Source: Laetmonice hystrix
Taxonomy: Eukaryota
Direction of reading: 5' to 3'
Length of the DNA: 64,000 bases
NCBI GenBank assembly: GCA_965235115.1
Contig: OZ249436.1
Span: 18,850,001-18,914,000, forward strand
Positions 41,101 to 64,000 of this stretch are shown here, in pieces. The notes beneath the pieces are model-generated. The model was not told the DNA's origin and made no database searches. It worked only from the letters and a program-made list of their open reading frames with translations. Position numbers and translations under genes: made by a program. Each line of letters opens with the position of its first letter. Position 1 is the first letter of the stretch.

Positions 41101-44100
41101 CCGTCACACCAGCCTGAAACACTTACAACACCACCATCACACCAGCCTGAAACACTTACAACACCACCATCACACCAGCCTGAAACACTTACAACACCAC
41201 AAGACAGTTGTTGTGAAGAGTTCACGAAGTTCATGACCTCTGTTAATGTGTTTCAGGAGAGAACGCAGCCCTGACTTCTGATACCACCCAAGATATCACT
41301 GACGATGTAAGTGGCTGTACACATAACCAATGTTTTACACACAGAACAAGTTGTGCATTATTTTACTGAAAAGTTAAAAAATGGAATTCACAATGGTGTT
41401 CTGTATAAAATTATTATAAATAACCAGGATGCATTAAAGACTTAAAGAAATATTTGGGGTGTGTTTGAATCACACTGCTTCACGATATGTGACCGTATCT
41501 GTGACCCCTATAACGTCTGTCTGCTGTAGGAGGCGCCACCCCGTCCACCCCCGCCATGTTGGCGTCAGGCAGGCGTCACCCTCCTCCAGCCTGACGCCTG
41601 GCCACGTCCGCGTCACAATACGCCCACGTCTTCGGCAGACGCCCACCATCACCACAGTCCTCCGACCACCCCACCACACCAACATCACTACACACGTCGG
41701 CTGACACATGACCAACATCATTACGGTGGGAGGGACCCGAGTCCAGGTGGTACACCACACCGTTACACAAAGGACCCACTTTTCCCTGCTCTGCACAGTT
41801 ATGACGCTGATCTCTCCTGGCGGCGGCCAGGCCAGGCGGACCACAATCGCCACCTGGTGGCCGATAAAGAAATCAACAAAATGTCGCCACCTAGTGTCAG
41901 AGACGACACTGAGTCGGTGTTGGTTTCCAGCAGTTACTCCGACTTCCCACAAGCCTCCCAGTTCCTACGGCCTGCATCCTACCGACACTCGAAGGAAACT
42001 TCACCATTTAAAGATTCTGATACCGTTGACGGCATTAAGGATAGTGTTATACGAAACAAGAGGTATTACAGTACAGCTGTGAAAATGGAGGCTTCAAACC
42101 CTGAACTCATAGCACAACAAAACAAACCCTTCCCACTGCTAACTCCTCCCTTAGTTGTAAAAACTGTGGAACCCAATTCTCCCGATGGTCATATCTCTGA
42201 AACGCATGCCGTATGGGAAAAGTCGAAGGAACTTCAACCCCCGACAGAGAAAAGGTATTTGCCTGAATCTGTGACTGAGAACAGAACTGGGCTTACTGCG
42301 AGCTGGAGAGATTTCAAGTCAAAACAATTCCCTGGACAGGAGCCTGACCAGTCCCTGCCTGGAGGAAGGGAAGATGGTATTAATAGGAACAAAACAAGAA
42401 CAGCCAATTACAACCAAACTGTAAGACAACCGGAAGGTCGTCTGCTGAACATCAGCCAATCAGCACAGCCGTTACATTTCCATGGTCCTGACTGGGCCCC
42501 CAGGACTAAACATCATACCCATTGGAGGCCATCAAGTCCAATCGAAACAACTCAAGGACAAGAACTCTGGGAAACAAGTACAGCCCAGTCTGTTCAAGGT
42601 CATCGTTCAAGGTCACACACAAGCTGGAAAGACTCGGCCCCAAGGTCACCTCTTGAGTACAAAAAACATCCTTGGACAGTGTCAGGGCCTGAGCAAGGAA
42701 GGACAGGTGGCTGTCAAAGGTCAGCTGGTGATCTCCATGTTAAAGATGTCGATACTCCGGGCCCTCGGAGGTCAGCTGTTGATCTCCATGGCCCAGATGG
42801 CAGTACTCCAGGCCCTCGGAGGTCAGTTGTTGATCTCCATGGCCCAGATGGCAGTACTCCAGGCCCTCAGAGGTCAGCTGTTGATCTCCATGGCCCAGAT
42901 GGTGGTACCTCCGCAGGTCCTCAGATCTTGGCACGACTCACTCATGGACCGTTGCTGTTTAAGCCAGAGCAACGACCAAGCACAGAACTTAGTGGAGAGC
43001 AATCATTTCCAGGTCACAGTGCCCTGTACAAGCTGACCCGTGACAGTAGACAAACAGACACAGAGTGCGAAACAAGAGACCCCCAGGACCACCCGTATCA
43101 TCAGTCTGGGGAAGAGCCCTCGAAACTGGTGCACCTACCAGATCGACGACTACAGGCTTCACTTCAAGATAAAGAGGTTCAAAACCTACCTTTCTCCAAC
43201 CAGTCCAAGCAGGGTCACCAGACTAAGGTACACTTTGATGATCCTAATGATTACAGCCAGCATCCAGCAATAAAAGGTGGAGAACCCGGGAACTCGCCCC
43301 TGTCCCACATGCAGTGGGACAACTATAATAAACAGCCCCAGTACCCCAATAGACAGAGATTTCTCACTCATACTAGCATCGTCCATCCATCAGATTTACT
43401 TGAGGATGAGTTGGCTGTCCGGTGGCATGGTCTGCGGCGGAGTCAGCCTCCTGTCCCGCGAGACAGTGTCCCGTCAGAGCAAGGGATTGAATCAAATGTT
43501 ACCACTACCCACCCCAAGCCTCTCCAGCACCCACACCTCAAGCCTGTCCGCCAGTACCCTCTGGAAGAGTCCTCCAGAGCCGATCGCAGTGATGATGCGG
43601 ATAACCACCAAACATCGGATGACTCCGTGGACCGTGGGTTGCCATGGAAAGATTTACCAGGAGGTCACCACCAAGAGCACGTGTTTAGGTTCAACTTTGA
43701 TACCAAACCAACGGAAGTCTAACAGTAGTGGACATGAAGGGCCAGACTATATTTTTAGAGTGAGCCCCACAGCTTTTCTTTTAGGGGGTGGGGACAAACA
43801 CTAAGGAAACCGGGCAATGCCCAGAGGGATATGTCGGGAAGTGTCCCTTGTGTTGCTTCATATGCTGCGAGTCAAGTGTCCAGTCGCTGACATGAATTCA
43901 GCTGTTCTATGTTACACGCAGGCAGTTGTTCACAAACTACAATTCAGTGTTGCCTTCTTGTACTCCCATTTGTCAGTCCACACTAAAGAGGCACACTAAA
44001 CGTAGACTTTTTATCAAATTGCTCGCTTGTCGGCAGGGGAACTATCTTGAGTTTTAGCACATATCGTCCCGATAAGGGCATCATTCTCCACAATAAATAT

Positions 44101-50100: not shown

Positions 50101-53100
50101 CAGGTTATTCAGTAGATGTGTCTGACCTCAGGTTATTCAGTAGATGTGTCTGACCTCAGGTTATTCACTAGATGTGTCTGACCTCAGGTTATTCACTAGA
50201 TGTGTCTGACCTCAGGTTATTCACTAGATGTGGCTGACCTCAGGTTATTCGATGTGTCTGACCTCAGGTTATTCACTAGATGTGGCTGACCTCAGGTTAT
50301 TCTATTCACTAGATGTGTCTGACCTCAGGTTATTCTATTCACTAGATGTGTCTGACCTCAGGTTATTCACTAGATGTGGCTGACCTCAGGTTATTCTATT
50401 CACTAGATGTGTCTGACCTCAGGTTATTCACTAGATGTGTCTGAACTCAGGTTATTCACTAGATGTGGCTGACCTCAGGTTATTCACTAGATGTGGCTGA
50501 CCTCAGGTTATTCACTAGATGTGTCTGACCTCAGGTTATTCACTCGATGTGTCTGACCTCAGGTTATTCACTAGTTGTGGCTGACCTCAGGTTATTCTAT
50601 TCACTAGATGTGGCTGACCTCAGGTTATTCACTAGATGTGGCTGACCTCAGGTTATTCACTAGATGTGTCTGAACTCAGGTTATTCACTAAATGTGGTGA
50701 AACTCTAGTCCTACAATCTGAGGTTTTGGGGGAACATGTTCTTATACTTACCTTCCTTGACATCAAATGTTCCTACTTTGAAGTCTGATCTGTACAATGT
50801 GGTTGGGGCCTTGAACATTGCTTCATAATTTGGTCCAATCCTTTCCAATTCCTTTTGTAGAAAGACATTATACAATTCAGCCACTTGGTAGACATTTCAG
50901 AATTTTCTGCGATGACTGCCACAATAACTGGAATGTTATTTCTATCACTGTGCTCCGTTTACTGTGCCCGACGGAAATAGTCTAGAGTTGGTAGCTGTTC
51001 ACACACAATGAATAGAACAAGGTCTATCTACTGGTCATTAGTTCCTCAGTGCCAATGCCTTATATTGATTATTCAAAATGCCTCTTGTTTTCAACTCAAT
51101 GTCTTACCGTATTAAAAAGGGCAAATTTCACATCTGTTGGGTCCTCTTCATTGCAAATAAAAGTGTCAATCTCTTTCACCTGAAAAAAAGTGACTTGGTC
51201 AACTGCATTAACATCCATGTACTTTGTTTTGGATATGACATTTTACAAACAATCCATGAAGAATTAATGTGCAGAATTCGGTGATTACTATCAGTGATTA
51301 CGAGAAGTAAAAATAAACTTACCATGGTTTTGACGATGGTTGTGTGCCAGGTTAACTTTATACGGCGAGGGGTCGTTGTCAGGCATTCCCAATTCTTTTC
51401 AATATATGGAATTATCTCCTACATTGGGGGAAGGAATCAAATGTTTCAGAATTGTGATTCCTTTTTTTTTTAGCCAAAGGGAAAATGGCAACATAGCAAC
51501 TTTTACAGAGAAACATTTATTCAAGATATACTGTACTTGTGCAACTGACAACTTCCAGTTGAAGTCTACAGCTATTTCTTTGGGAGATAAATGACAAGTT
51601 ACTTACTCGGTCTTTAGAGAAATAGGTTTGATCAGGATTCTGACTCAGCAAGTTAGCAAGGGTTGTTTGACACATCTGGCCAAAAGCTGCAAAAAACAGT
51701 TCACCAAGTAGGTTATGCAGTAAAGCAAGGACCCAATTTAATTTCATTTTACTTTTGAAGAAATAATTACAAAGTTTTTAGTAAATAACTTTTCATGCAG
51801 ATAATCAATCAGACATCTTGACAGACAGTGTATTTTAAGAGAACAAATGGACACTAGACAGCCTATTTCTACAAGATACATTTTTTCAAGATATTGAAGA
51901 TATGCTGTATTCTGAAAATGTAGCTACAACATCACATAATTTCTGAGATGAAATTTGGGGAATTTCACAAAACCCATCAATTTCTGAGATGGCACAAAGA
52001 ACATGATCATAATAAATCAGTGTAAGAAAATACTCACTGGCTTGTTTTTTGTTAAAACTTTCAATCCCAGACATGTTGCATCGTTTACAAAAGAACTGAT
52101 AATTCATCATAAATGGCACAATTTTTCTGAAAAAAACAAATTTCAATGCATTTAATTACCTGACTTGTCGAGAACATGCATGTCTAAATTCTTATGCTGA
52201 TTTGATATTTTATTAAATTGAATATCAAGCAGTCTTGAAATGATAACTTTCCTTCTATATAAGAAAAGGGCATTTCCGTAGAAGGGAGCCGGGCATATTT
52301 TCAATGAGACATAAGGTGTTATCCATTTTAGGATTTTGGATTTTAAAATAACTGTTGTGTGCATGTCTTAAGACATTTGGAGTTACACATATATCAATAC
52401 TAGCTGTTTCATAAACAGAGAGAAATTCATAACATTACCTACCCTAAGTAGCAACTGACACATTCAGCATGAAAGAATTTGAAACAAATTCCACAGAGCA
52501 GTTCCAATGTGCCAACTCGCCGAGGCACGCCACTGTGTATAAATAAAGGGGGGCATCAAAATATAATAGGGGCTACTTTTTTCAAATACTGCCTCTTGAA
52601 AGAGTTTTGTTAGAACTTCCGATTCCCTACAAAAGCAGATTATTGTATATATATATATGCAAGGTTTTCTAACAAATTGCATTAATAAATATTTTACAAA
52701 GGTGCTAAAATATATTGCACTTTTTTTAATCTTTAAATAACAACATGTATAAAAACATGGATTTCAAAGGTAGTGTCTAATGTAGAATATATATCCTTAC
52801 CAATAACAACCATTCTCTTCAATATCTTTTTCTGAACATTCACTCTCAATGATCACTTTTGGTTTCTCCAAAACATCCACTTTTACTTCCTGTTGCTCTG
52901 GTTCTGGCTCAACTTTTGGGGGCTCCTGAACAACTGCTAAGGGAGCAGGTTCCTCTTCTTTGGTCGCAGCATCTTCAGTAGGTTCATCCACTTCCATCTT
53001 TGACTCGGCTGACTCCTGAGAGGATGGAGCAGTGTCTGGTGTTGGTACCGGATCACTTTCATTTTTATCTGATTCATCCATAACTGCCTCTTTCGGGGGG

Positions 53101-53115
53101 TCTGATGCTGGTTCC
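3886..53115 (-). CDS. ASH2L: ASH2L, Set1/MLL COMPASS histone H3K4 methyltransferase complex subunit (16 coding exons traced; first exon not located)
   Basis: Manually spliced exons have GT-AG ends and consistent phases, 1861 nt in total. The translation shows an atypical PHD ([12 protein letters not shown]...[13 protein letters not shown]), winged helix ([20 protein letters not shown]), [24 protein letters not shown] ([15 protein letters not shown]...[15 protein letters not shown]) and a C-terminal DPY30-binding motif ([13 protein letters not shown]). Confidence 0.97.
4187..4461. repeat. Minisatellite, 35-bp unit
   Basis: CTATTTAATGAAGGTTTAGGGTCATGTCGAGAGGG, 7-8 near-perfect copies. Confidence 0.95.
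4631..4690 (-). CDS. ASH2L: ASH2L exon ([20 protein letters not shown])
   Basis: tgtccag / gtaaga, phase 0-0; NFGP end of SPRY. Confidence 0.95.
4838..5475. repeat. Tandem repeat of about 60 bp with CCCTAA-like motifs, interrupted by a MITE
   Basis: CCTAGTCCTGGTACATAGACCTCCCC...CCCTAACCC units resume after 5423. Confidence 0.8.
5131..5423. mobile_element. Foldback MITE
   Basis: Long TIRs CCCCGGTTTCAGAAAGGCTCTAAGCAGCAAGCT... / ...AGCTTGCTGCTTAGAGCCTTTCTGAAACTGGGG. Confidence 0.85.
5550..5648 (-). CDS. ASH2L: ASH2L exon ([33 protein letters not shown])
   Basis: tttcag / gtcagt, phase 0-0; SPRY. Confidence 0.95.
5838..6127. mobile_element. hAT-like MITE
   Basis: TIR CAGGGTTCCCACG / CGTGGGAACCATG; internal TTCCATGACT repeats; no clear TSD. 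Confidence 0.65.
6197..6289 (-). CDS. ASH2L: ASH2L exon ([31 protein letters not shown])
   Basis: ttttcag / gtaaga, phase 0-0; KFKSxLYFEEKD is characteristic of ASH2. Confidence 0.95.
8310..9460. repeat. Complex minisatellite (about 36-bp core with higher-order structure)
   Basis: CACTCACAACATCCCGGATACAGGAGGCCACTCTCC variants. Confidence 0.93.
10690..11052. repeat. Minisatellite, 21-bp unit
   Basis: AACCCCCAATACAGACTGACC. Confidence 0.93.
12245..13732. repeat. Minisatellite, 30-bp unit, about 49 copies
   Basis: CCCCGGCTCCGTCAGAAACATGCACTCAGA variants. Confidence 0.96.
14130..14439. mobile_element. hAT-like MITE with 5-bp TSD
   Basis: CAGGGTTC...GAACCCTG ends, TCTAG on both sides, internal TTCCAGGC repeats. 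Confidence 0.75.
15715..16059. mobile_element. Inverted-repeat element (putative MITE)
   Basis: About 44-bp inverted repeats CCGGTGTCGCGGTCTGTTTTCTCCG... / ...CGGAGAAAACAGACCGCGACACCGG. Confidence 0.6.
16580..16765. mobile_element. Small MITE, Harbinger-like
   Basis: GCCCCGTTTACATTACC / GGCAGTGTAAACGTGTC ends; internal CTCGGTCCGGACCGAG palindromes. Confidence 0.5.
17215..17425. repeat. Tandem repeat, about 70-85 bp, 3 copies
   Basis: GCATGGGACGGCCTGAC...GGACCAGGCTGAGG repeated. Confidence 0.8.
18772..18927. mobile_element. PIF/Harbinger (Tourist-like) MITE
   Basis: TIR GGGGCCGTTCAAAAATTAC / GTAATTTTTGAACGGCCCC with TTA TSD on both sides. Confidence 0.85.
18932..19262. mobile_element. Kolobok-like MITE
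   Basis: TIR AGGTGCTATTCGT / ACGAATAGCACCT flanked by TTAA. Confidence 0.8.
20955..21522. repeat. Minisatellite, about 57-bp unit
   Basis: ATATTCTTAATGGTCACTGACAGCATATGTAGACATGGTCATTGAGACCTACATATT. Confidence 0.92.
21712..22457. repeat. Tandem repeat, about 111-bp unit
   Basis: GGCCCATGGCGACCCACTATTCCTAGTAGTAGCAAGCCCC...ACAGAGTGCT, 6-7 copies. Confidence 0.93.
25558..26907 (+). CDS. Nested single-ORF gene: mucin-like type I membrane protein (uncharacterised)
   Basis: 449-codon non-repetitive ORF. It has a hydrophobic signal-like segment ([21 protein letters not shown]), a Ser/Thr/Pro-rich ectodomain with a poly-Thr run, a TM helix [21 protein letters not shown], juxtamembrane RCCCKK and C-terminal TSYV. 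Confidence 0.8.
   Translation: MTRIPPALTMSPCNHSGVTSKIIRLVAMAITCILLPVSFSRAASIATSEDVNTGSDVTQAVLDYRHHGNHDNAASSPASVTTNVGRFHITWHQYIGPGSGPAPSTAPSGVTTGAPSSGDDITTDPDLGPIDVVHSIQVAAPAAVLGPPSLDHQTTTTTTTTATTTQTDAAPPTSPVDLPGQVRHFPWSAVPSVAGWNPYPDVNQPTFPNSLYQLDPDTTVRQWDKDNDVVTSEFDGLNNVLVTLGLGDEITEGYGVSSPPPEENEPPGSDQETYPPDDGSSYHRPDHDPATRSLTTMLYVVESSEQQSTPKSVLSSVQHDLSGKLQFQLKDIILAVCGTVACVFTICMLVTFTRCCCKKQKDESDEEQQPRSQHRSIWRRSWKRPVDSAASTTQTQESSTSENVTQVTIERHGDLESGDDEDTGGFTTGKVHKDSTRSGCVNSYVTSYV
28155..28680. repeat. Pyrimidine-rich minisatellite, 56-bp unit
   Basis: CACATCGCTACCTCTTCATCACCATCTCAATACTTCCTCTGTCCCATTCTCTCTCA. Confidence 0.93.
31365..31830. repeat. Minisatellite, 49-bp unit with paired E-boxes
   Basis: ACACCTGCCTGGAGAGTGTCAGGTGTACACTCCTCACTCGGAGGTCCTT. 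Confidence 0.92.
32440..32885. repeat. Minisatellite, about 33-bp unit
   Basis: ACACCAGACAAGTGGAACTTGTGCCTTGAATA variants. Confidence 0.88.
33199..33422 (+). CDS. Nested gene exon ([10 protein letters not shown]...[13 protein letters not shown]...[15 protein letters not shown])
   Basis: cctccag / gtaagt, phase 1-0. Confidence 0.78.
33199..43722 (+). CDS. Nested multi-exon gene, large Ser/Pro/charged disordered protein (uncharacterised)
   Basis: Phase-consistent GT-AG exons 33199-33422, 33923-34083, 34899-34989, 35357-35431, 35748-36823, 37012-37074, 39357-39412, 41257-41306 and 41530-43722 (stop TAA, ends KPTEV). AATAAA at 44092 and 44329. Confidence 0.8.
33654..33721. repeat. Perfect hairpin (28-bp stem, 12-nt loop) inside a larger imperfect palindrome
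   Basis: TTCAGTGAGTGTGAACACACCTGAAGCT-12 nt-AGCTTCAGGTGTGTTCACACTCACTGAA. Confidence 0.9.
33923..34083 (+). CDS. Nested gene exon ([20 protein letters not shown]...TPTSS)
   Basis: gttacag / gtgaga, phase 0-2. Confidence 0.72.
34899..34989 (+). CDS. Nested gene exon ([30 protein letters not shown])
   Basis: tttcag / gtaagt, phase 2-0. Confidence 0.78.
34981..35064 (+). repeat. 28-bp triplication of an exon end and splice donor
   Basis: CTCAAGTCG|GTAAGTTACCGGAGTTTTA x3; the middle copy has GC instead of GT. Confidence 0.9.
35357..35431 (+). CDS. Nested gene exon ([25 protein letters not shown])
   Basis: Long pyrimidine tract + tttcag / gtggga, phase 0-0. Confidence 0.75.
35748..36823 (+). 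CDS. Nested gene large exon ([12 protein letters not shown]...TDRHKL)
   Basis: tttgcag / gtatgg, phase 0-2; 358 open codons, SP-rich. Confidence 0.82.
37012..37074 (+). CDS. Nested gene exon ([20 protein letters not shown])
   Basis: ctcacag / gtaagt, phase 2-2. Confidence 0.7.
38700..39200. repeat. C-rich minisatellite, about 42-bp unit
   Basis: CCCACCTTGACCTGACGCCCCACCCCCACCCTGTCCAGGACG. Confidence 0.9.
39357..39412 (+). CDS. Nested gene exon ([18 protein letters not shown])
   Basis: ttgtag / gttgga, phase 2-1; needed to keep the frame into the next exon. Confidence 0.55.
40330..41200. repeat. Minisatellite, 33-bp unit
   Basis: TCACACCAGCCTGAAACACTTACAACACCACCA. Confidence 0.95.
41257..41306 (+). 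CDS. Nested gene exon ([16 protein letters not shown])
   Basis: tttcag / gtaagt, phase 1-0. Confidence 0.68.
41530..43722 (+). CDS. Nested gene terminal exon (EAPPRPPPP...[12 protein letters not shown])
   Basis: ctgtag acceptor, 731 codons in the frame of ORF 41857..43722; includes a 17-aa internal repeat. Confidence 0.82.
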   Translation, partial: EAPPRPPPPCWRQAGVTLLQPDAWPRPRHNTPTSSADAHHHHSPPTTPPHQHHYTRRLTHDQHHYGGRDPSPGGTPHRYTKDPLFPALHSYDADLSWRRPGQADHNRHLVADKEINKMSPPSVRDDTESVLVSSSYSDFPQASQFLRPASYRHSKETSPFKDSDTVDGIKDSVIRNKRYYSTAVKMEASNPELIAQQNKPFPLLTPPLVVKTVEPNSPDGHISETHAVWEKSKELQPPTEKRYLPESVTENRTGLTASWRDFKSKQFPGQEPDQSLPGGREDGINRNKTRTANYNQTVRQPEGRLLNISQSAQPLHFHGPDWAPRTKHHTHWRPSSPIETTQGQELWETSTAQSVQGHRSRSHTSWKDSAPRSPLEYKKHPWTVSGPEQGRTGGCQRSAGDLHVKDVDTPGPRRSAVDLHGPDGSTPGPRRSVVDLHGPDGSTPGPQRSAVDLHGPDGGTSAGPQILARLTHGPLLFKPEQRPSTELSGEQSFPGHSALYKLTRDSRQTDTECETRDPQDHPYHQSGEEPSKLVHLPDRRLQASLQDKEVQNLPFSNQSKQGHQTKVHFDDPNDYSQHPAIKGGEPGNSPLSHMQWDNYNKQPQYPNRQRFLTHTSIVHPSDLLEDELAVRWHGLRRSQPPVPRDSVPSEQGIESNVTTTHPKPLQHPHLKPVRQYPLEESSRADRSDDADNHQTSDDSVDRGLPWKDLPGGHHQEHVFRFNFDTKPTEV
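45460..45665. repeat. Minisatellite, 24-bp unit
   Basis: TCCAACCAAAGTTTATCTTCCTGA. Confidence 0.88.
47062..47258 (-). CDS. ASH2L: ASH2L exon ([31 protein letters not shown]...LPKTSKDK)
   Basis: ctcacag / gtcagt, phase 1-0; SPRY core. Confidence 0.96.
47923..48012 (-). CDS. ASH2L: ASH2L exon ([29 protein letters not shown])
   Basis: ccctcag / gtaggc, phase 1-1. Confidence 0.95.
48181..48971 (-). repeat. 33-bp minisatellite built from the ASH2L exon end and 5' splice site, 24 units
   Basis: Minus-strand unit ATGGTGCGAGCGACACATG|GTGAGTTTAGGGTC. Confidence 0.96.
48953..49033 (-). CDS. ASH2L: ASH2L exon ([26 protein letters not shown])
   Basis: actttag / gtgagt, phase 1-1; its 3' end is the first unit of the 33-bp array. 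Confidence 0.94.
49381..49595 (-). CDS. ASH2L: ASH2L exon ([35 protein letters not shown]...ALHDR)
   Basis: ttcctag / gtctgg, phase 2-1. Confidence 0.95.
49870..49957 (-). CDS. ASH2L: ASH2L exon ([28 protein letters not shown]), basic NLS-like
   Basis: attctag / gtgagt, phase 1-2. Confidence 0.88.
50098..50697. repeat. Minisatellite, 28-bp unit
   Basis: CTCAGGTTATTCACTAGATGTGTCTGAC. Confidence 0.94.
50752..50851 (-). CDS. ASH2L: ASH2L exon ([33 protein letters not shown])
   Basis: Weak aaag acceptor / gtaagt, phase 0-1; IGPxY motif. Confidence 0.85.
51108..51179 (-). CDS. ASH2L: ASH2L exon ([24 protein letters not shown])
   Basis: tttttcag / gtaaga, phase 0-0. Confidence 0.9.
51323..51418 (-). 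CDS. ASH2L: ASH2L exon ([32 protein letters not shown])
   Basis: atgtag / gtaagt, phase 0-0; winged helix. Confidence 0.95.
51607..51686 (-). CDS. ASH2L: ASH2L exon ([26 protein letters not shown])
   Basis: tttgcag / gtaagt, phase 1-0. Confidence 0.94.
52038..52126 (-). CDS. ASH2L: ASH2L exon ([29 protein letters not shown])
   Basis: ttttcag / gtgagt, phase 2-1; PHD-like. Confidence 0.95.
52443..52532 (-). CDS. ASH2L: ASH2L exon ([29 protein letters not shown])
   Basis: tacacag / gtaggt, phase 2-2; PHD-like. Confidence 0.94.
52801..53115 (-). CDS. ASH2L: ASH2L acidic N-terminal exon ([17 protein letters not shown]...EENGCYC)
   Basis: ttacag / gtaagg; open acidic frame joining in phase to the PHD exon; internal ATG at 53081. 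Confidence 0.88.
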
Positions 53116-53654
53116 CTGTAATGTAAACACAAACACTATCTTTGAAAGTTCTATCTACCTGGGAGTTGGAAGGATTAACTATAGGGAACAGTGCAGTGTT
53201 CTCCACAAGACGAAAATTCACAGCGGTGGTGAGCCGGGGGTCTGGGGGCCACATGCCCCCAGCGGGGTCCAGGGGCAGTGCCCTTGCAGGGGTCCAGGAG
53301 GCAGAGCCCCTGGGAGATCCTGGATTATAAGGATTTGGGGGGGGGGGGGGGGTAAAAGATTCACAAAGTCATCCTCAGCAGCTCAATTACGGTAAAACAT
53401 CAGTTGATTAGGTAAATAAATTATAGCACAGCATACCGGCGGCCACCTTGGGCACTCAGTACACCGGCAGGAGACAAAAGTACTTTGTATGTGTGGAGAA
53501 CGCAGGGAGATATAGTCTAGCATTCTGATGGTCAGAGCGTCCGGCAAGCCAATGCATCCAACAGATAGACAGAGGACCTGGGGGGGGGGGGGGGGGGGGG
53601 TTTGTAAAAGTGTCTGGGGCACTGCGACACCGGACCCTTTGACTACTGCAATGG

Positions 53655-53931
53655 ATGCTTTAACCATCTGTTGATTTCCACTGTGACGTCACAATATCAA
53701 CACATGCTTATTCCAAAGTCTACTGTGACATGACAATATTACCATGGTCGTCATAAGACGACAAAAGGCGTTGCTAAGTGACCTGTCACTCCCGGCGCTG
53801 ACGTTTTCTCTATTCTTTGGCCTGACTTGGCGGACACCTGTATCATTATCAATGACTACGGAAAGCTGAAACAAAACTGTAGTAGCTAGCCTAACATAGA
53901 TAAAACTGCGCTCGCCCTTGGGTAGCACCTA
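53655..53931 (-). mobile_element. Dispersed repeat, copy A (inverted relative to copies B and C)
   Basis: Reverse complement begins TAGGTGCTACCCAAGGGCGAGCGCAGTTTTATCT, as at 54079 and 61558. Confidence 0.7.
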
Positions 53932-54187
53932 CGTCATATTAGCGTTGTATTCATTGTTGTAAGCCAGGCTTTTACTTTGACGTACCTCCGTACTTGGTAA
54001 TTAGTTCCCGATTATACCACAAGAGGCACAAGCCAAGAAGAACCAGCCCTACCTAGGTACCTAGCATAAAATATGACTTAGGTGCTACCCAGGGGCGAGC
54101 GCAGTTTTATCTGCTTTGTTTTAGCTTTCCATAGTAATGATACAGCCTATAAAACGCAGGTTTGATCGAGTTACCGGGAGTGATATA

Positions 54188-54763
54188 TTATAGGAATAGT
54201 GAACGTTTAGGATGCGTTGGCGGTGACATAGGGCACGACGGCCGAGGAGGCCCAGGGTGGCGCAGCCAGCCGGGGGCCTCCAAGGCCGATTGCCCTATCT
54301 CACCGCCAACGCATCCTAAACGTTCACTTTTCCTGTTATGAAATGGCCCCACATTAGCAAACAAGAATTTAGACTAATAACAATAATTGTTACCGTTTAC
54401 CATCCATAGGCCTACCATACCATCGTCACCTACTTCCGAAATGTGAGGCATGAATGACCTAATTGCCCACTGCAAGACCCTTCCTTTTTAGTTAATGCCA
54501 AAACGTCACAATTGTTACAATTAAACGTCACAATTGTGACGTCACTGATGACGTTGTTTTCACTTTGTTTAGTCATGGAGCGACACAATGGTATTATCCA
54601 TTGTCAAGTCTCCGTTCGATTCCGTGATCTATCAGTAGGATAGATCACGTTACTATGGTGAAATGTAATTACGTATGCTCGGCCGGTTTCCGTACGCTGG
54701 CCGGAACATGTGTTTTCGTTTGTGACGTTGCGGGACCGGATAGTGCACGCCAGCCATTTTATA
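54188..54763. mobile_element. Insertion with TTATA ends and a long internal hairpin (Crypton-like, tentative)
   Basis: Absent from copy C; hairpin 54192-54334 (AGTGAACGTTTAGGATGCGTTGGCGGTGA.../...TCACCGCCAACGCATCCTAAACGTTCACT). Confidence 0.55.
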
Positions 54764-55051
54764 ACACTTAGTAACGCCATCCTAGACGACCATGGTGATA
54801 TTGTGACATCGCAGTAGACTTTGGAAAAAACATAGATATTGTGACGTTACAATGGAAGTCAACAGATCGGGTTCTAAATCTACGGTCTGGCAGGCTGCAT
54901 TTTTCGCCGTTTTCACTTCGGTCAAGCGGCTGTAAACGGGAGTGATTGGCCGTTCAGTGATGGCCGATTCCTAATGCCCGACACCCGAGCAAGTTGATTA
55001 CATGGTGGGACGAGTCCAACAGACCAAAGACAAGAGCCCGATGGCTAGTGC

Positions 55052-55625
55052 TCTGGGAGGCCTTTCACTAACGTTGATTTTCGCCAATATCATCAACTTT
55101 CGCCACCATCGTCGCCAATCTGGCGATATAGGGAACGGGAGGTGTTTCACTAAGAATTCTCGCCAAATATTCTTGCCAAATCGGCGATTTTGCCGGCGAA
55201 ACGTCGGAGCACGTCCCACCATCCCCAAACGTGATCAAAATCCTACTTGCATACAGAAACCTTCACTCTTTTACACGGCTGCATTCTTGAAATGATTAAT
55301 CAAGTGCATTTCGTGCAAGGAATAACCTAACAAACCTGTAGTTGTTTAATTTCACGGGTGTAGAATTTCAAAGTTTTGACCCGAGTTTGTTTACGTGCGC
55401 CATTTTGACGTCAGTGTTTGTCACCCACAATGAGGCTCTGTGGCAGCGAGGACTTTTAGACAAGCGGGAATGGCAAAATAGATGCATAATTGTGACGTTG
55501 GCTGGCAACGGTGGCAACGGTGTTAGTGAAACAGTCTGACGGAATCGTCGCCATGGTCGCCAGATTTGGCGAGAATTATATTCCCTAAAATTAGCGATCG
55601 CCAATCTTAGTGAAACGGGCCCCAG
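55052..55625. mobile_element. Harbinger-like MITE
   Basis: CTGGGAGGCCTTTCACTAA / TTAGTGAAACGGGCCCAG ends; internal TCGCCA/TGGCGA motifs. Confidence 0.6.
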
Positions 55626-56302
55626 ACCCAACAGACTCAATAACAAGTATAGAGGACATGTGGATGTCACAGCCGGGCAAGTGGAATTTTGTAGTCCACT
55701 TGTCCTGTGGCAAGTGTTTAATTCGAAAAATTGGCCACCCCTGCCGTTACGTTTCTGACAGGCAATTTCACGTGAAGAGTAGGTAGAATCCAAGGGAAAA
55801 GTTACTAAATGTTTGGAATCTGTTTATAGAAGTGGCAGATAAGGAAGTGGTTTGTAGATTTCCATGCATTTGGGAAATTTGAATTTCGATGCAGTGCAAT
55901 TTAAGCGAATCAGATTGCTCCGATTTTGCCGGCACCGTAATAAAAGCAAAACCTCCACGGATTTCCACATCCGATCGATGCACCATAATGCGGTTCCTAA
56001 GGTACAGAGCTCGCTTCGCGAGCCGCATTGCGGCTCGCTGCGCTCGCTATAACTATAAGTCAGTCAGAAAATCGGACAGACCTCTGCTTGGGAGAATAGG
56101 GTCACTCCAGAGGAAGTTGGCTAGGCGCGCAAAGTTTTAACTAATCTTATAGGTAGGCGCTCAGTCTTTTGCACGCCTTGGAACAATTTTTAGGTGCGCT
56201 ATGGCACGCAAGTGCAATTGCGCACCTCAAAAGACAAGCCCAGCCCTGCTTAGTTATGCACCCAATCGCAAGCAGCAGGGCTCTGCCACACACGGCAGCA
56301 GG

Positions 56303-57690
56303 TAGCGATGGCAATGCTCGCTAGGTGTCGCGCACAACCCAAAATGTCGGAACTCAGAATTCCTGACCCAGAAAGACACCCGGCCAATTACGGCCGATTG
56401 TGATGAAATATTAGGCTGAATGGACTAAAAAACTAAGGGGATCGAAGGAGAAATGAATATAATTTGAGTAAATACGCATGTCAAACGTTCTGCCCTGGAA
56501 ACACGTGCTGGTAAATGATTTTGAAGTATTCGACGCCAGGTACTTTATCGTTATAAGTAATATACGCTCCTTTTACATAGATCAGAGGGCAATATTGGAT
56601 GTCTAGTTTTAGCAGGAAGTATCGTTTTGGAAGTAAATTGACGTATTCAACATTTAAATGTCAGGCAAAGACATCGTGTCCGTCCCGCCAAGTTGAAGAG
56701 TGTCATGGCTGCCCCCATGAAATTCTCTATTATCGCTCATACTCAGGGGCCTTCGATTCGGTATTTGCCCCGGTCGATTCACCCCACTCGAAAAGACGAT
56801 TCGCCCCACTGGTAGAAGACTATTCAGCCCACTCGGAAAGCCATTTCGCCCCAGTCCAGACTGGGTCGGCGGGGAGCAAGCCGCTAACTCCCGGCTGTAC
56901 TGTGTAGGCGGGTTCGCGTAGCCCGCAACCGGGGCGGGAGCGACCGGGCTCCCGACCTTCACGGCCCCGCCGCAGGCAGCCGGCCTGCCCGCCTGGCCTG
57001 CCCCTGTCCCACTCCGCCGGGCCAACGCAGGCTCCGCCTCCGACCCTGACGCCCAGCCCCATCGAACGGGTGCCGGGACGTCCCGGCCCGGCCCGCTCCT
57101 CCCCTCCCCGGGCTGGTCAGTGGTGGGAGTTTAGCTTGCCTGCCTATAACAACTGTAAGGTCCCCTAGCCCTAGGCCTAAAAATATGTTCATCAGATTGT
57201 AACATCTGAGCAAATTCTTGCTTCTATTATTCTAATTCCTGAAAAAGTTTTTTTTAAAGCAATTTATTAACAAAGATTGGCTTATCTGTTGCTATAATGT
57301 ATAAAAATGTATGAAAAGAGTGTTCGGGCGCCGTTTTTCGATGGAGAGTACCCTATTTCTACAGTTATTGTGATGACACTGATATGGTATTTATAATTTT
57401 TTGGTTTTTCATTACCATGTACATGTCCCAGTGAATCATCTTAATATAAATTTGGCCATAATAAAAGCATTTTTTACCTTGAAAATTGATTGGGTCACTT
57501 TTTTTCCGTTTTTGAAAAAAATGCTCATTTTAAAGTCCAATTCTTGAGAGAGAAAAACGTGTGTATCTCATTTAATATTTGGGCTAGGGACAAAATTCAA
57601 AATGATTTTTCATATTAACATCATGGTGAATAAAATGACATCTTTAAAAAAATTATTTTTGTGACGTTTCAAAATGGCTTGCCATGGCTA
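56303..57690 (+). mobile_element. Non-autonomous DNA transposon (hAT-like), copy 1, 7-bp TSD CAGCAGG
   Basis: TIRs TAGCGATGGCAA / TTGCCATGGCTA; CAGCAGG at 56296-56302 and 57691-57697. Confidence 0.9.
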
Positions 57691-57745
57691 CAGCAGGGCT
57701 GGGGGTGGGGATGTAGTGATCCAGTGTGAATTGATGCGCTAGTAT

Positions 57746-59145
57746 TAGCCATGGCAAGCCATTTTGAAACGTCACAAAAATAATTTTTTTAAAGATGTCA
57801 TTTTATTCACCATGATGTTAATATGAAAAATCTTTTTGAATTTTGTCCCTAGCCCAAATATTAAATGAGATACACACGTTTTTCTCTCTCAAGAATTGGA
57901 CCTTAAAATGAGCATTTTTTTCAAAAACGGGAAAAAAGTGACCCAATCAATTTTCAAGGTAAAAAATGCTTTTATTATGGCCAAATTTATATTAAGATGA
58001 TTCACTGGGACATGTACATGGTAATGAAAAACCAAAAAATTATAAATACCATATCAGTGTCATCACAATAACTGTAGAAATAGGGTACTCTCCATCGAAA
58101 AACGGCGCCCGAACACTCTTTTCATACATTTTTATACATTATAGCAACAGATAAGCCAATCTTTGTTAATAAATTGCTTTAAAAAAAACTTTTTTTCAGG
58201 AATTAGAATAATAGAAGCAAGAATTTGCTCAGATGTTACAATCTGATGAACATATTTTTAGACCTAGGGGGCCTTACAGTTGTTATAGGCAGGCAAGCTA
58301 AACCATCTACCTATTCTGTGGCTAAACTCCCACCACTGACCAGCCCGGGGAGGGGAGGAGCGGGCCGGGCCGGGACGTCCCGGCACCCGTTCGATGGGGT
58401 CGGGCGTCAGGGTCGGAGGCGGAGCCTGCGTTGGCCCGGCGGAGTTGGACAGGGGCAGGCCGGCTGCCTGCGGCGGGGCCGTGGAGGTCGGGAGCCCGGT
58501 CGCTCCCGCCCCGGTTGCGGGCTACGCAAACTCGCCTACACGAGTACAGCCGGGAGTTAGCGGCTTGCTCCCCGCCGACCCATGCAGTCTGGACTGGGGC
58601 GAAATGGCTTTCCGAGTGGGCTGAATAGTCTTTTACCAATGGGGCGAATCGTCTTTTCGAGTGGGGTGAATCGACCGGGGCAAATACCGAATCGAAGGCC
58701 CCTGAGTATGAGCGATAATAGATAATTTCATGGGGGCAGCCATGACACTCTTCAACTTGGCGGGACGGACACGATGTCTTTGCCTGACATTTAAATGTTG
58801 AATACGTCAATTTACTTCCAAAACGATACTTCCTGCTAAAACTAGACATCCAATATTGCCCTCTAATCTATGTAAAAGGAGCGTATATTACTTATAACGA
58901 TAAAGTATCTGGCGTCGAATACTTCAAAATCATTTACCAGCACGTGTTTCCAGGGCAGAACGTTTGACATGCGTATTTACTCAAACTATATTCATTTCTC
59001 CTTCGATCCCCTTAGTTTTTTAGTCTATTCAGCCTAATATTTCATCACAATCGGCCGTAATTGGCCGGGTGTCTTTCTGGGTCAGGAATTCTGAGTTCCG
59101 ACATTTTGGGTTGTGCGCGACACCTAGCGAGCATTGCCATCGCTA
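57746..59145 (-). mobile_element. Same element, copy 2, inverted, 7-bp TSD CTAGTAT
   Basis: Near-identical reverse complement of copy 1; CTAGTAT at 57739-57745 and 59146-59152. Confidence 0.9.
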
Positions 59146-59331
59146 CTAGTATAAGGCTGCACCGCCGGTAAACGCCGGCTTACTACCGCTTAGGTAGGCC
59201 CTTACGGCCTTAGCCTTACTCAGTTTAGAGTTAGACTCTACCAGGCTAAACTGCTGAGCCTGGCTTAGCATATTAATGCTGAGCCTGAGGCTGAGGCCGA
59301 GCCTGAGCCACTCAGCCAGGCAAGCTCCGAC

Positions 59332-60145
59332 GGTAAATAGTCGATTCGCCCCACTTCCGATTCGCCCCGGTCGATTCGCCCCACTCGAAAAGACGATTCG
59401 CCCCACTGGTAGAAGACGATTCGCCCCACTCGGAAAGTCGTTTCGCCCCAGTCCAGACTGGACGCTAACTGACTCTATCATTCTATCAGTCTACGTTTTT
59501 ATTGTCTCTTGAGTCTTGATACTATCCAGTCCAGTAAACAAGTCGTTTTGTGGACCAATTAAGGCCGACCGTCCGGCCCGGAGCGAGCTGCTAACTACCG
59601 GCTCTGTACCGCGTGCTGTTGCCGGCCCGTACCGGGCTCCCCACCTGCACGGCCCGGCAGGCAGGCGGCCGGGTAGCGAGCCGCTGACGACCGGCGGAGC
59701 TGTGTCTGTAGGCGGGTTCGCGTAGGCCGTATCGGCCTAGTGCCCTAGACGGGATCGTGAGCCTGCAACCGCCGCAGCCACCCGCCCGCCCGCCCGCCGG
59801 CAACCGGCCTGCCTCACTCCACCCAGTCCCCGCTTTCGACCCTGACGCCCGACCCTTCGAACGGGTGCCAGGACGTCCCCGCCCGGCCCGCTTCTCCCCT
59901 CCGAGGCCCGGTGGCGGCGAAGGCCCATCGAGACGAGACAGTATTAGTAATGGCCTACCAACTAACTATAAAAGCTCCAGTGTGGTTAAAGAACTTAGGT
60001 TAACTTAAATTAACTTCGAGATCATCGATGGGGCGAAACGACTTCAAGTGTGGGGCGAAACGACTAGGGGTGGGGCGAATCGACTAGGTTGTGGGGCGAA
60101 ACCGACCCGGGTCGAAACCGACCTGGGGCGAATCGACTATAATTC
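59332..60145. mobile_element. Non-autonomous TIR element with subterminal CGATTCGCCCC repeats and 8-bp TSD
   Basis: ATAGTCGATTCGCCCCA / TGGGGCGAATCGACTAT; GCTCCGAC at 59324-59331 and 60146-60153; MULE- or Merlin-like. Confidence 0.82.
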
Positions 60146-60499
60146 GCTCCGACTCTTGAACTGTTGAAGTTGAGGGGGGATGGGGTACTATCTTAGCAGA
60201 CAGAGCATCACAACTAATGTCATCTACACCAAATGAGCCACACAGTTTTCTAAAGTTCAACTCTCTGCCTTTTTTCTTCCGCCTTTACATTAACTCGAAA
60301 CTCAGAAAGTTATACAAACCCGGGGCCGGGGGTTTTGTTATGTCCCGCGGAATCCGCCATTTTTATTTTTATTCTCGTCTCGTGATAACTGAGGTTTCGA
60401 TTTAGGCCCGATAAATATTCAATAACGTGTTCTTAGATAAGAAATTAATAGCAATATAAGTAGGATCTAATATATATTGCTTTTAAAGAAAATATTTCA

Positions 60500-60986
60500 A
60501 CAATATTAAATTACAAGATTATCACGTATTCCGTGAGAATCTAACGAGAAGAGGAAGTCGCCATTTTGTACTATGAATGTCAGTGAGTGCCGAAAGAAAC
60601 AAACTCTTCCGTGTATGTCAATTGGCAAACAGGGGTGAGTTAACAAAAGAATTCTACCACAAGGAGCTGTGTGATAACTCGGTTTGCTCTCCATTCATCA
60701 GCTAGGATATTAGACAGTAGACGTTTTCATAAAGTGCTGAGTTTATGTTGACAGCCGACGGTTCAAGTCGCTTGCCGTGTTGGCCGACACTCCCCTCCTA
60801 CACTGACCGGGGGGGTTGATGGAAGCTGCCGCCGCCTGGCCTACCAACACGGTCCACACCCAAACGTTCACTGAACACTTGCATTCCGGTTCAAGGGACA
60901 AGTCCGATGAAACGTGTTCCACTGATACCACTGTTACGGGTTGAGTCGTGAGCGCTGGCAGCGCGCTGAAACGTGAAGAGAACAAG
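60500..60986. promoter_or_regulatory. Candidate promoter of the NAK kinase, possibly bidirectional with ASH2L
   Basis: CpG-containing unique DNA upstream of the ATG at 60987; YY1-like AAAATGGCG on the minus strand at 60559-60567; GGAAG motifs. Confidence 0.4.
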
Positions 60987-61101
60987 ATGAAGAAATTCTT
61001 GACAAAAATCGAAAACACCTTTGATGCCCAGCAGACATTTGCTGGGAAGGTTTTCAATGTGGGGAGGTATTCAGTGACGGTTGAAGATGTAATTGCTGAA
61101 G
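60987..61101 (+). CDS. AAK1: First coding exon of a Numb-associated kinase (AAK1/BMP2K family)
   Basis: MKKFLTKIENTFDAQQTFAGKVFNVGRYSVTVEDVIAEG then gtcagt donor. This matches the NAK N-terminus pattern MKKF...G(K/R)VFx(V/I)GRxxVTV(E/D)xV(I/L)AEGGF. Confidence 0.9.
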
Positions 61102-61749
61102 GTCAGTATTAAATAATTAAATAATCATTGCTTTATTTTAACTTAAGGCAGTGTACATTTAGCAGGCAACGGCTAAATAAGATTATCTTAGTTTGACTAA
61201 TTACTAAATCCAAACAAAATGCTTGGGTTATGGTTAGGGTCAGTCCTACGGTTAGTTTTATTGCAGTGTTGCCAATCTGCCTGAATCATTCGGGAGTCTC
61301 ACGAAAATTTAAAGCAAGTCCCACCCTCCTCCCGAATCACTCCAAGAATCTCCTGAAAATCACAAAAAATGTCTAAAGATTTTGAAGATTATCACTGTGA
61401 TAATGCCTACGAATGCTATGCTCAAAAGTTAAAATCTAGAAGATGGATTAAAAAAATGGCAAAAGCCTGTTATAATCACACTTGCCATGACTTTTATTTT
61501 CAATCAAAGTCCCCTTCAAATGGCACGAAAATGCATATTTTAATGTCTAAAATGACTTAGGTGCTACCCAGGGGCGAACACAGTTTATCTGCTTTGTTTC
61601 AAAGGCTTTTCGAGTGGATACGGCCGTCAGGCCAAAGGCAAAGTAAGTCTACAAAACACAGGATCGATCAAGTTACCGGGAGTGACATATCACTTAGTAA
61701 CGCCGTCTTATGATGACCATGGTGATATTGTTACGTCACAGTAGACCTG

Positions 61750-61875
61750 GGCCCGGTTCACAAACAAAGTCAAGTCAATTTTAATTAACTTGAAATCCAT
61801 TTTAACCAATCAGATTCAAGTAAAATTGACTTCAAGTCAATTAAAATTGACTTGACTTTGTTTGTGAACCGGGCC
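61750..61875. mobile_element. Hairpin MITE, Harbinger-like (CWG target)
   Basis: GGCCCGGTTCACAAACAAAGTCAAGTCAATTTTAATT and its exact reverse complement. Confidence 0.85.
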
Positions 61876-62216
61876 CAGGGCTCTCAAAAGAAGCCGGTCT
61901 GCGGCGGCAAAACACCGTCTAAAACCAGTTTGCCACTGCCTACTTTTTGTTGAATGACAAAAAATCTTTTTAACAATGTTCTTTTTTCACTTTTCTGCAT
62001 ATAGGATCCGCACACGGCCTCAGCATGTACCAAAACAACATGTCAGTGATGACCAATTGCCCCTCTCAGATGCCAGGAAATTGCATCTCAGGGGGGCATT
62101 TTTTCAATTTTTTTTCCAGAGGAGGGCCCTCGGACCCCCTCCCAGGGCTGTACCCCGCTGTACCCTGCTACTTTCTCTTCTGTACCCTGCTACTCCTGCC
62201 AACTTTGAGAGCCCTG
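61876..62216. mobile_element. hAT-like MITE with 6-bp TSD GTAGAC
   Basis: CAGGGCTCTCAAA / TTTGAGAGCCCTG; GTAGAC at 61741 and 62217; empty site in copy B at 54814. Confidence 0.8.
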
Positions 62217-62751
62217 GTAGACTTTGGAAAAAGCATAGATATTGTGACGTCACAATGGAAGTCAACAGATCGGGTTCTAAATCTACGGTCTGGCAGGCTG
62301 CTTTTTTCAGTGTTGTGAAGTGAGGGAGTGATTGGCTGTTACCTTTCCGACAGTCGATTTCATGTGAATAGTAGGTAGAATCCAACGGAAAAGTCACTAA
62401 ATGTTTGGAATCTGTTTATAGGAGTGGCAGATAAGGTAGCGGTTTGTAGATTGCCGTGCGTTGAATTTCGATGCAGTGCAATTGAAGCAGATTGCTCCTA
62501 TTTTGGTGGCTCCATAATACCAGCAAAACCAGCATTTCCATATCTGATCGATGCACCGTATGCAGTTCCTTGGGTATAGAGCTCGCTTTGCGGCTTGCTG
62601 TGCTCGCTATTATTAAAAAATTTTCCCCAGGGCGTGCCCACGGACCGCCCTGGCAGGGCTTCGCGGCTGACGCCGCTCACAATTCCTAAACCTCCAGAAA
62701 TTCAAGCTCTACCAGGTTGGCAACACTGTTATTGTGTAGCTATGTGGGAAC

Positions 62752-63330
62752 CTGGGGCTCGTTTCACTAAGCTGGCGACATCGCCCGTCATAAATGTGGC
62801 CCCCTGCGGCCAAAGTTAAAGCAATGGGGCATGTTGCCAGAATGAGCAACATTATGTGACGTGCCATACCAAAACCAGGTGGAATTCGCATGTGTGAAGT
62901 TCTAAGCTAGGGGGGTCAAAAGGTCAGATTTCGGTGATTTTGAGATTTTTCAAGAAATCAAAGGCCACATTAGAAATTATAAATTTATGTCGAAAACCCG
63001 GTCTATGTTGATAAAAAATGGAATTATTTGGGCTTGTTTCACATGACTAACCTCAGAAATAAAGGCCGAAAAATTTCAACATTCAGGGTCAAAGCTGTTT
63101 TTTAGCCTTTTTTTCAAAATCAGCAACTCATAAACTGTCACACGTTCAAACTTCGATATCTTCAGATATATTTTGAAGCTTGTGACCTGTACGTTTTGAT
63201 TATTCAATAAAACACACATCAATTTTTGCTGACTTCTGCCTGGTTTTGGCATGGCCCCTCACATATTACCTTATAGGGGGTGGCGAGGTCCCATTTGGCG
63301 ATGTCGCGGGCTTAGTGAAACAGGGCTCAG
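62752..63330. mobile_element. Harbinger-like MITE containing a TA-flanked TIR element (62855-63263)
   Basis: CTGGGGCTCGTTTCACTAAG / CTTAGTGAAACAGGGCTCAG; inner TGTGACGTGCCATACCAAAACCAGG / CCTGGTTTTGGCATGGCCCCTCACA. Confidence 0.72.
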
Positions 63331-63624
63331 CGGGTGCGTCCCCACCCCCCCCCCCACCCCATTCCCCCAGACACAATGTTGAAACAGGTCTATGAAAGTT
63401 ATGTTTCACATGATTTGGGGTCTAGGTGACAAAGTTTTAGTTTCTGTACAAGAAACTCCCAACAATATATAGGTTTACTCTTAATGTAATGAGAGTGATT
63501 TCAAGAAAGGCTCAACTTCTGGAAACATGCTCCTTCCTGACATATTGCCCCAACATTCTGGGTAGCAGGCCACTACGTTGATTTAACTAATTTAGACCAC
63601 GACACTGTCTTTTGAACAGTGTAG

Positions 63625-63761
63625 CAGGGCTCGAAAACTGAGTTATCAGATTTTTAAAAGCAGTAATAGACAATATTCTGCAACTCATCTCTTAATTTGA
63701 TTCGTAATAGACTGATTTTGGGATGCAAATTGCAATGCGAATCCAGTTAATTCAAGCCCTG
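63625..63761. mobile_element. Small hAT-like MITE with 5-bp TSD
   Basis: CAGGGCTCGAA / TTCAAGCCCTG; TGTAG on both sides. Confidence 0.7.
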
Positions 63762-64000
63762 TGTAGTGTTAAAAACTTGTCTACAGAATTTAACAGAACC
63801 CACAGGAATACTAGTAAAAAGTTTAACATTCACTGTCCAATTTAGTGAACCTTTCTCATCTGGCTATAGATCTAGACTGCAAGATTAGGCTCTAAAATAG
63901 CCTAAATTACCAGAGCTTGAGAGCGGGGAGGGGGGGGGGGCTTTGCTCCTCCTGTGCCCTGTGCCCCTAACCAGGGCGCTGGCTTTGGTTTGACCTTGAC

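Follow-up and report, generated by a model that had tools for sequence, protein, structure and literature searches.

Two opposite copies of a non-coding transposon form a long near-perfect palindrome near the probable ASH2L promoter of Laetmonice hystrix

Two full copies of one non-coding transposon (copy A and copy B) lie in opposite orientation only 55 bp apart and together make up a long near-perfect palindrome in the window, the whole 64-kb stretch of Laetmonice hystrix DNA that was analysed. Very probably the structure goes back to two opposite insertions of a non-autonomous cut-and-paste family near the ASH2L promoter. The preliminary description of the locus had proposed two separate insertions 55 bp apart, each with its own terminal inverted repeats (TIRs) and its own 7-bp target-site duplication, and its coordinates and motifs turned out to be exact (Table 1).

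Anatomy of the two insertions

The target sites of A and B are 48 bp apart (the non-palindromic spacer contains both inner duplications). Two exact 7-mer duplications would be expected by chance at ~4e-9, assuming equal base frequencies. An 8-bp reading of the duplications was rejected as the eighth letter is mismatched at both A and B, and a 5-bp reading is compatible with A only and contradicted by B. Symmetry of the arms ends exactly at the element termini, beyond which the outer flanks differ (CAGCAGG and CTAGTAT). Alignment of A with reversed B gave 1352 matches, 17 substitutions (14 of them transitions) and 7 indels over 1419 columns, an identity of 98.8% without gaps and 95.2% with gaps, in line with the near-identical arms and few indels noted earlier. 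The innermost 87 bp of the arms match perfectly, and the longest perfect run measures 263 bp. A generic TIR and duplication scan demanding five identical terminal letters misses both copies and is not counted as evidence.

Two local features of the arms were also seen. A 24-bp insert private to B (58304-58327) consists of 18 foreign letters and a 6-bp duplication, and is possibly repair filler or the footprint of another element. The motif TAGGCCTA, at 57172-57179 within A and one letter different in B, occurs three times in the window.

Table 1. Coordinates of the palindrome, its neighbouring element and the ASH2L exons in the window
Feature	Position	Strand	Details
Copy A, left target-site duplication	56296..56302	+	CAGCAGG, 7 bp
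Copy A	56303..57690	+	1388-bp non-coding TIR element; longest stop-free frame 158 aa, Pfam negative
Copy A, TIRs	56303-56314 and 57679-57690		12 bp, 11/12 identical
Copy A, GC-rich internal segment	56763..57107 (A 461-805)	+	Related to 814-bp solo element
Copy A, right duplication	57691-57697		CAGCAGG
Spacer	57691..57745		55 bp: A right duplication, 41 bp host DNA, B left duplication
Copy B, left duplication	57739-57745		CTAGTAT
Copy B	57746..59145	-	1400 bp, inverted relative to A; ends supported by sample S1 copies
Copy B, TIRs	57746-57757 and 59134-59145		12 bp, 11/12 identical
Copy B, right target-site duplication	59146..59152	+	CTAGTAT, 7 bp
814-bp element, other family	59332..60145	+	Non-coding TIR element; 8-bp duplication GCTCCGAC at 59324-59331 and 60146-60153
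ASH2L exon, winged helix	51323..51418	-	Pfam PF21198, E 1.8e-14
ASH2L exon, PHD finger	52039..52125	-	Pfam PF21257, E 1.3e-8
ASH2L acidic exon, taken as exon 2	52801..53115	-	Open frame and splice sites
ASH2L predicted first coding exon	60320..60360	-	13 codons, phase 2; predicted from start context

The element and its probable transposase

The element has no coding capacity: its longest stop-free frames span 108 and 158 codons, Pfam gave no match in the two element frames scanned, and Rfam gave none across 52000-64000. Its GC-rich segment, present in B as well (about 58349-58685), resembles the neighbouring 814-bp TIR element (for A, 93% over 102 bp and 72% over 251 bp), a likeness that marks the interior as filler derived from another transposon family. 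Near the element ends only A/T-rich words are enriched. Exact end patterns had zero matches in metagenome contigs and zero in viral contigs, and six matches in prokaryote genomes, all restricted to 19-20 letters, were set aside as chance. No transposase was found within the element, and scans of the prokaryote, metagenome and viral collections were empty or gave chance matches. The family is probably undescribed.

Several features of the termini point to the hAT superfamily, as had been proposed. The TIRs (12 bp, 11 of 12 letters identical) fall within the 10-25 bp given for hAT elements (PMC3942097), and of the two ends the 5' one, TAGCG, fits the hAT terminal motif YARNG, the opposite one, TAGCC, fitting it at four of five letters. 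The 5' end shares 9 of 12 letters with the TIR of the lizard element hAT-HT1 (PMC3014272) and 8 of 11 with that of Ac (PMC3260210). The duplication length does not follow the canonical hAT pattern (Ac/Buster/Tip), being 7 bp at both of the family copies in which it is readable (A and B only). Eight bp is indeed usual for hATs (PMC3942097), as the preliminary description held, but 7 bp has precedent: groups with 5-, 6- and 7-bp duplications have been published (PMC12730594), and some Repbase hAT families are annotated "7-bp TSD" (PMC4455052). Repbase classification asks for equal duplication length and for terminal 11 bp with at most one mismatch to a classified family (PMC4455052). Against Ac, the terminal 11 bp here match at eight positions. 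The animal group hATw may likewise give 7-bp duplications; the literature consulted on this group, including the Repbase supplement, PMC12905397 and PMC8721813, gave no confirmation of that length.

Judged by these ends, the mobilising transposase was probably of hAT type, acting in trans. The element thus seems to behave like a non-autonomous hAT, but we do not file it as a hAT member, because its duplications depart from the 8-bp rule and no transposase was found for it. It is unlikely that the enzyme was instead of the P superfamily (Galileo-like) or of a Mutator type with 7-bp duplications, which would leave the anatomy unchanged. Galileo duplications are 7 bp like those of A and B (PMC4168063), and a Mutator/foldback family has reportedly been described in 7-bp terms (PMC3169594). 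The TIRs of Galileo, however, are long and foldback-like, and its preferred target is GTANTAC (PMC4168063), whereas the TIRs here are 12 bp, start with TAG and resemble hAT ends, and both targets misfit GTANTAC.

Absence of copy B from a haplotype of another individual

Four runs of sample S1 (X1-X4) contain the region, and their assembled contigs only were compared, over 57691-61150, a span that starts just after A and runs through the spacer and B into the flanking DNA on the right. Word share with the region was 0.58-0.63 in three runs, corresponding to a difference of about 1.5-1.7%, so that S1 is probably another individual than the source animal. An S1 contig of depth 1060 has 59145 as its exact starting point, and a diverged copy sets in precisely at 57746, preceded by 31 foreign letters, which confirms both ends of B. 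Six listed S1 element contigs are 11-22x deeper than the unique flank, a rough hint that each haploid genome contains some 10-20 near-identical copies, contig depth not being the same as copy number. A search for family copies, suggested in the preliminary description, had as its yield a multi-copy family with both ends matched; the 7-bp length of the duplications was read at A and B (2/2).

A joint from 57741 to 59145 that skips B is present in one contig each of X1, X2 and X3 and in none of X4. Depths of the three B-less contigs are 44, 26 and 30, against 60, 26 and 56 for unique sequence. Copy B is polymorphic between animals, at least one haplotype of the other individual being without it; this answers in the affirmative the earlier question of presence/absence polymorphism. 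Compared with a clean empty site, the joint has four additional letters; it retains the entire right duplication and three letters of the left one, and further letters may intervene; in the X2 contig 29 letters are unaccounted for. It may represent the scar of an excision or a small indel of unrelated origin and, not being a clean empty site, does not amount to textbook proof of insertion. Contigs of X1 and X3 have their start precisely at 59145, which hints at a second S1 allele, possibly with B, entering at this position.

Order and age of the two copies

The 23 difference events between A and B were sorted against the neighbouring 814-bp element and the S1 family contigs. About 11 are private to B and 6 to A (p = 0.33), with 6 of the 23 unsorted; two of the 17 sorted events depend on an assumption about one contig, and the 15 firm ones split 10:5 (p = 0.30). 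A much greater age of B (about 9:1 private changes) was considered and rejected, as the difference table behind it showed only changes relative to B. Four differences were found in the 720 bp of B that lie under listed high-depth contigs, all placeable at positions that distinguish A from B. No derived change shared by A and B is visible in those 720 bp among the matches listed, so each of the two copies seems to have descended separately from the family consensus. Substitutions per quarter from the palindrome centre number 3, 4, 6 and 4 (KS p = 0.33), a spread with no sign of a gene-conversion gradient from the centre or of arm homogenisation.

The recent activity read from the locus earlier can be upheld in a relative sense only, with about 5-11 private changes per arm. 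Cut-and-paste transposition can move an already mutated copy, and the 1.2% divergence therefore dates the copies and not the palindrome. With 15-100 copies assumed in a genome of 0.5-2 Gb, random placement would give 6e-6 to 1e-3 pairs within 60 bp per family, which makes pure chance unlikely and calls for some clustering mechanism. Local hopping, invoked in the preliminary description, is documented for hATs (PMC2753552). A late hop would leave shared derived changes, and their absence from the 720 bp speaks against it. A local hop at an early stage of the burst of this family has not far from an even chance of having produced the second copy, and an independent landing in an insertion-prone region is a serious, if tentative, possibility; the surroundings of the palindrome, probably close to a promoter, are dense in other elements.

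Position in the host gene

The host gene is ASH2L, as identified by the Pfam matches of its PHD-finger and winged-helix exons. Protein database searches with two ASH2L exons, the acidic one included, returned no homolog. The acidic exon requires a phase-2 partner, and 3 of 67 candidates tie for the best start context. One of them, the predicted first coding exon, lies in a CpG-rich stretch, head-to-head with another gene; the stretch is nearly invariant in S1 (1-2 differences per about 970 bp). Run X4 showed no coverage of this predicted exon, a result that carries no weight either way. A second, at 55403, scores equally in start context and was rejected for lying within a TIR-bounded repeat (about 55058-55621), and the third is at 54757. 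Given the predicted exon, the palindrome quite probably lies inside ASH2L intron 1. Of the conditional placement in this intron made earlier, the gene is borne out by the Pfam matches and the intron number is probable.

The two head-to-head genes are about 630 bp apart, at 60360 (-) and 60987 (+). The plus-strand first exon (60987-61101) has no Pfam match, and we take it to resemble the start of an AAK1/BMP2K-type kinase. Two minus-strand AAAATGGCG motifs, presumably YY1-like, are found at 60363 and 60567.

How the palindrome may have arisen

We propose that the family consists of non-autonomous cut-and-paste DNA transposons of 1.4 kb with 12-bp TIRs and an interior of other-element filler, for which a transposase supplied in trans would cut the target with a 7-bp stagger. 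Two insertions at sites 48 bp apart and in opposite orientation, in a promoter-proximal ASH2L intron, would then have created the palindrome as a functionless by-product, to be lost from the population upon excision of one arm. Direct support for this comes from the two separate duplications, the family ends, the multi-copy nature of the family and the absence of B elsewhere; from these and the arguments above we infer the transposase type, the closeness of the second copy and the intron-1 position.

A more far-reaching version, which we regard as quite unlikely, would have a hAT-like lineage of animals that cuts with a 7-bp stagger and is attracted to the ends of its own copies. The palindrome would be long-persisting, its arms diverging without gene conversion, and would segregate with an allele that had lost one arm by excision and kept an atypical scar (the complete right duplication preceded by one extra letter, and three letters of the left). 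If true, the intron of a housekeeping gene would offer three natural alleles in series (empty, single, palindrome), which would measure the cost of long intronic dsRNA and of widely spaced palindromes in an invertebrate, and the B-less scar would read out the cutting chemistry behind 7-bp duplications.

Very unlikely, in our judgement, is that A and B sit on different homologues and that a haplotype switch inside the spacer produced a palindrome carried by no chromosome. B is missing from at least one haplotype of the other individual, the species is polymorphic (as seen from the word share in S1), and no read was seen crossing the entire palindrome, the S1 material being contigs over the span compared; but a switch within 41 bp of unique sequence requires reads ending there, and long-read assemblies seldom switch haplotype in so short a unique sequence.

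Predicted folding and expected consequences for genome stability

RNA folding of the inner 641 nt predicts a single stem of -476 kcal/mol (z -63), and G-U pairing would accommodate 7 of the 17 arm mismatches in RNA of the ASH2L sense strand, so that the palindrome is predicted to form a hairpin in the pre-mRNA. That the pair is retained because such intronic dsRNA tunes ASH2L, through editing, small RNAs or slowed splicing, would draw on the stability of this predicted hairpin; every inverted pair folds likewise, however, B is absent from another haplotype and arm homogenisation is not seen, and we hold the idea to be highly improbable.

Inverted Alus in yeast recombine ~40-fold less with a 20-bp than with a 12-bp spacer, and 300-fold less at 100 bp, while single-stranded DNA removes the protection that a spacer gives (PMC10164571, PMC8053094). 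By analogy with the yeast spacer effect, a spacer of 55 bp should strongly suppress the extrusion of a cruciform and make it rare, and hairpins in single strands (pre-mRNA, lagging strand) would be the likelier hazard. The earlier label "cruciform-prone" was, on the same data, an overstatement. As to the suggested role as a substrate for alternative transposition, the A/B pair does have the required geometry of the inverted Ds type, equal to that of an inverted Ds pair in rice, and any activity would be expected by analogy only.

Comparison with known systems

The rice OsRLG5-161 inverted Ds pair and maize double Ds share their geometry with A/B (PMC3239180). Unlike those, the present pair is natural, from an animal, flanked by 7-bp and not 8-bp duplications, 55 bp apart and with arms 1.2% diverged; and whereas the rice pair underwent sister-chromatid transposition and inversions (PMC3239180), no rearrangements were observed at A/B. 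Transposon dimers in Drosophila likewise result from same-family insertions side by side during activity, P-element dimers in wild strains being inverted in 8/85 and head-to-tail in 55/85 (PMC5932611). In those dimers, as defined by McGurk and Barbash, both insertions use the same target site, whose duplication occurs once, at the junction (PMC5932611), whereas A and B occupy two sites, and 41 bp of host DNA separate their inner duplications. A 7-bp duplication combined with hAT-type ends is shared with hAT7 (PMC12730594) and the Repbase families mentioned above (PMC4455052); hAT7 is fungal and defined by its transposase (PMC12730594), whereas the present family is known from non-coding copies only. 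Ds2 and Ds-like elements resemble A and B in size (1-1.5 kb), short TIRs and unrelated filler interior (PMC3260210), but the filler of A and B comes from another TIR element.

The A/B pair is hence a real, polymorphic natural example of a known arrangement, and not a new kind of element. A narrow literature search on natural close inverted pairs, with Repbase outside its scope, turned up neither this locus nor this family. Near-identical transposons that lie close together in inverted orientation are believed to be purged. A polymorphic pair that probably occupies intron 1 of an essential chromatin gene makes their cost measurable, and with this family the combination of hAT-like ends and 7-bp duplications gains an example from animals.

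The locus also carries a warning for annotation, in that a seeming foldback element can be two independent insertions. For all the palindromic look and the high identity of its 1.4-kb arms, a single foldback element, a repair-made inverted duplication or a fold-back read artefact is exceedingly improbable here, since the outer ends have no duplication in common and each outer flank equals its inner copy, the symmetry reaches precisely to the element termini and no further, single copies occur away from this site, B alone can be absent, and comparison with the family assigns some of the arm differences to A and others to B.

Neighbouring elements in the window

The 814-bp element lies 186 bp beyond B and has GATTCGCCCC subterminal repeats. 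It is absent in S1, where it is skipped at full depth in X1, X2 and X3, and its family is far more abundant than that of the palindrome (listed S1 contigs at 33-73x unique depth). Many long minisatellite arrays, with units of 21-57 bp and 111 bp, occupy 1600-50800, and a 730-codon open frame without a Pfam match is found at 41530-43722. Related repeats at 55743-56058 and 62335-62618 (78% over 316 bp) share a GC-rich hairpin end and are presumably Helentron-like. Elements at 55058-55621 and about 62750-63330 have GGCCC..TTTCACTAA-type ends, which we take to be Harbinger-like.
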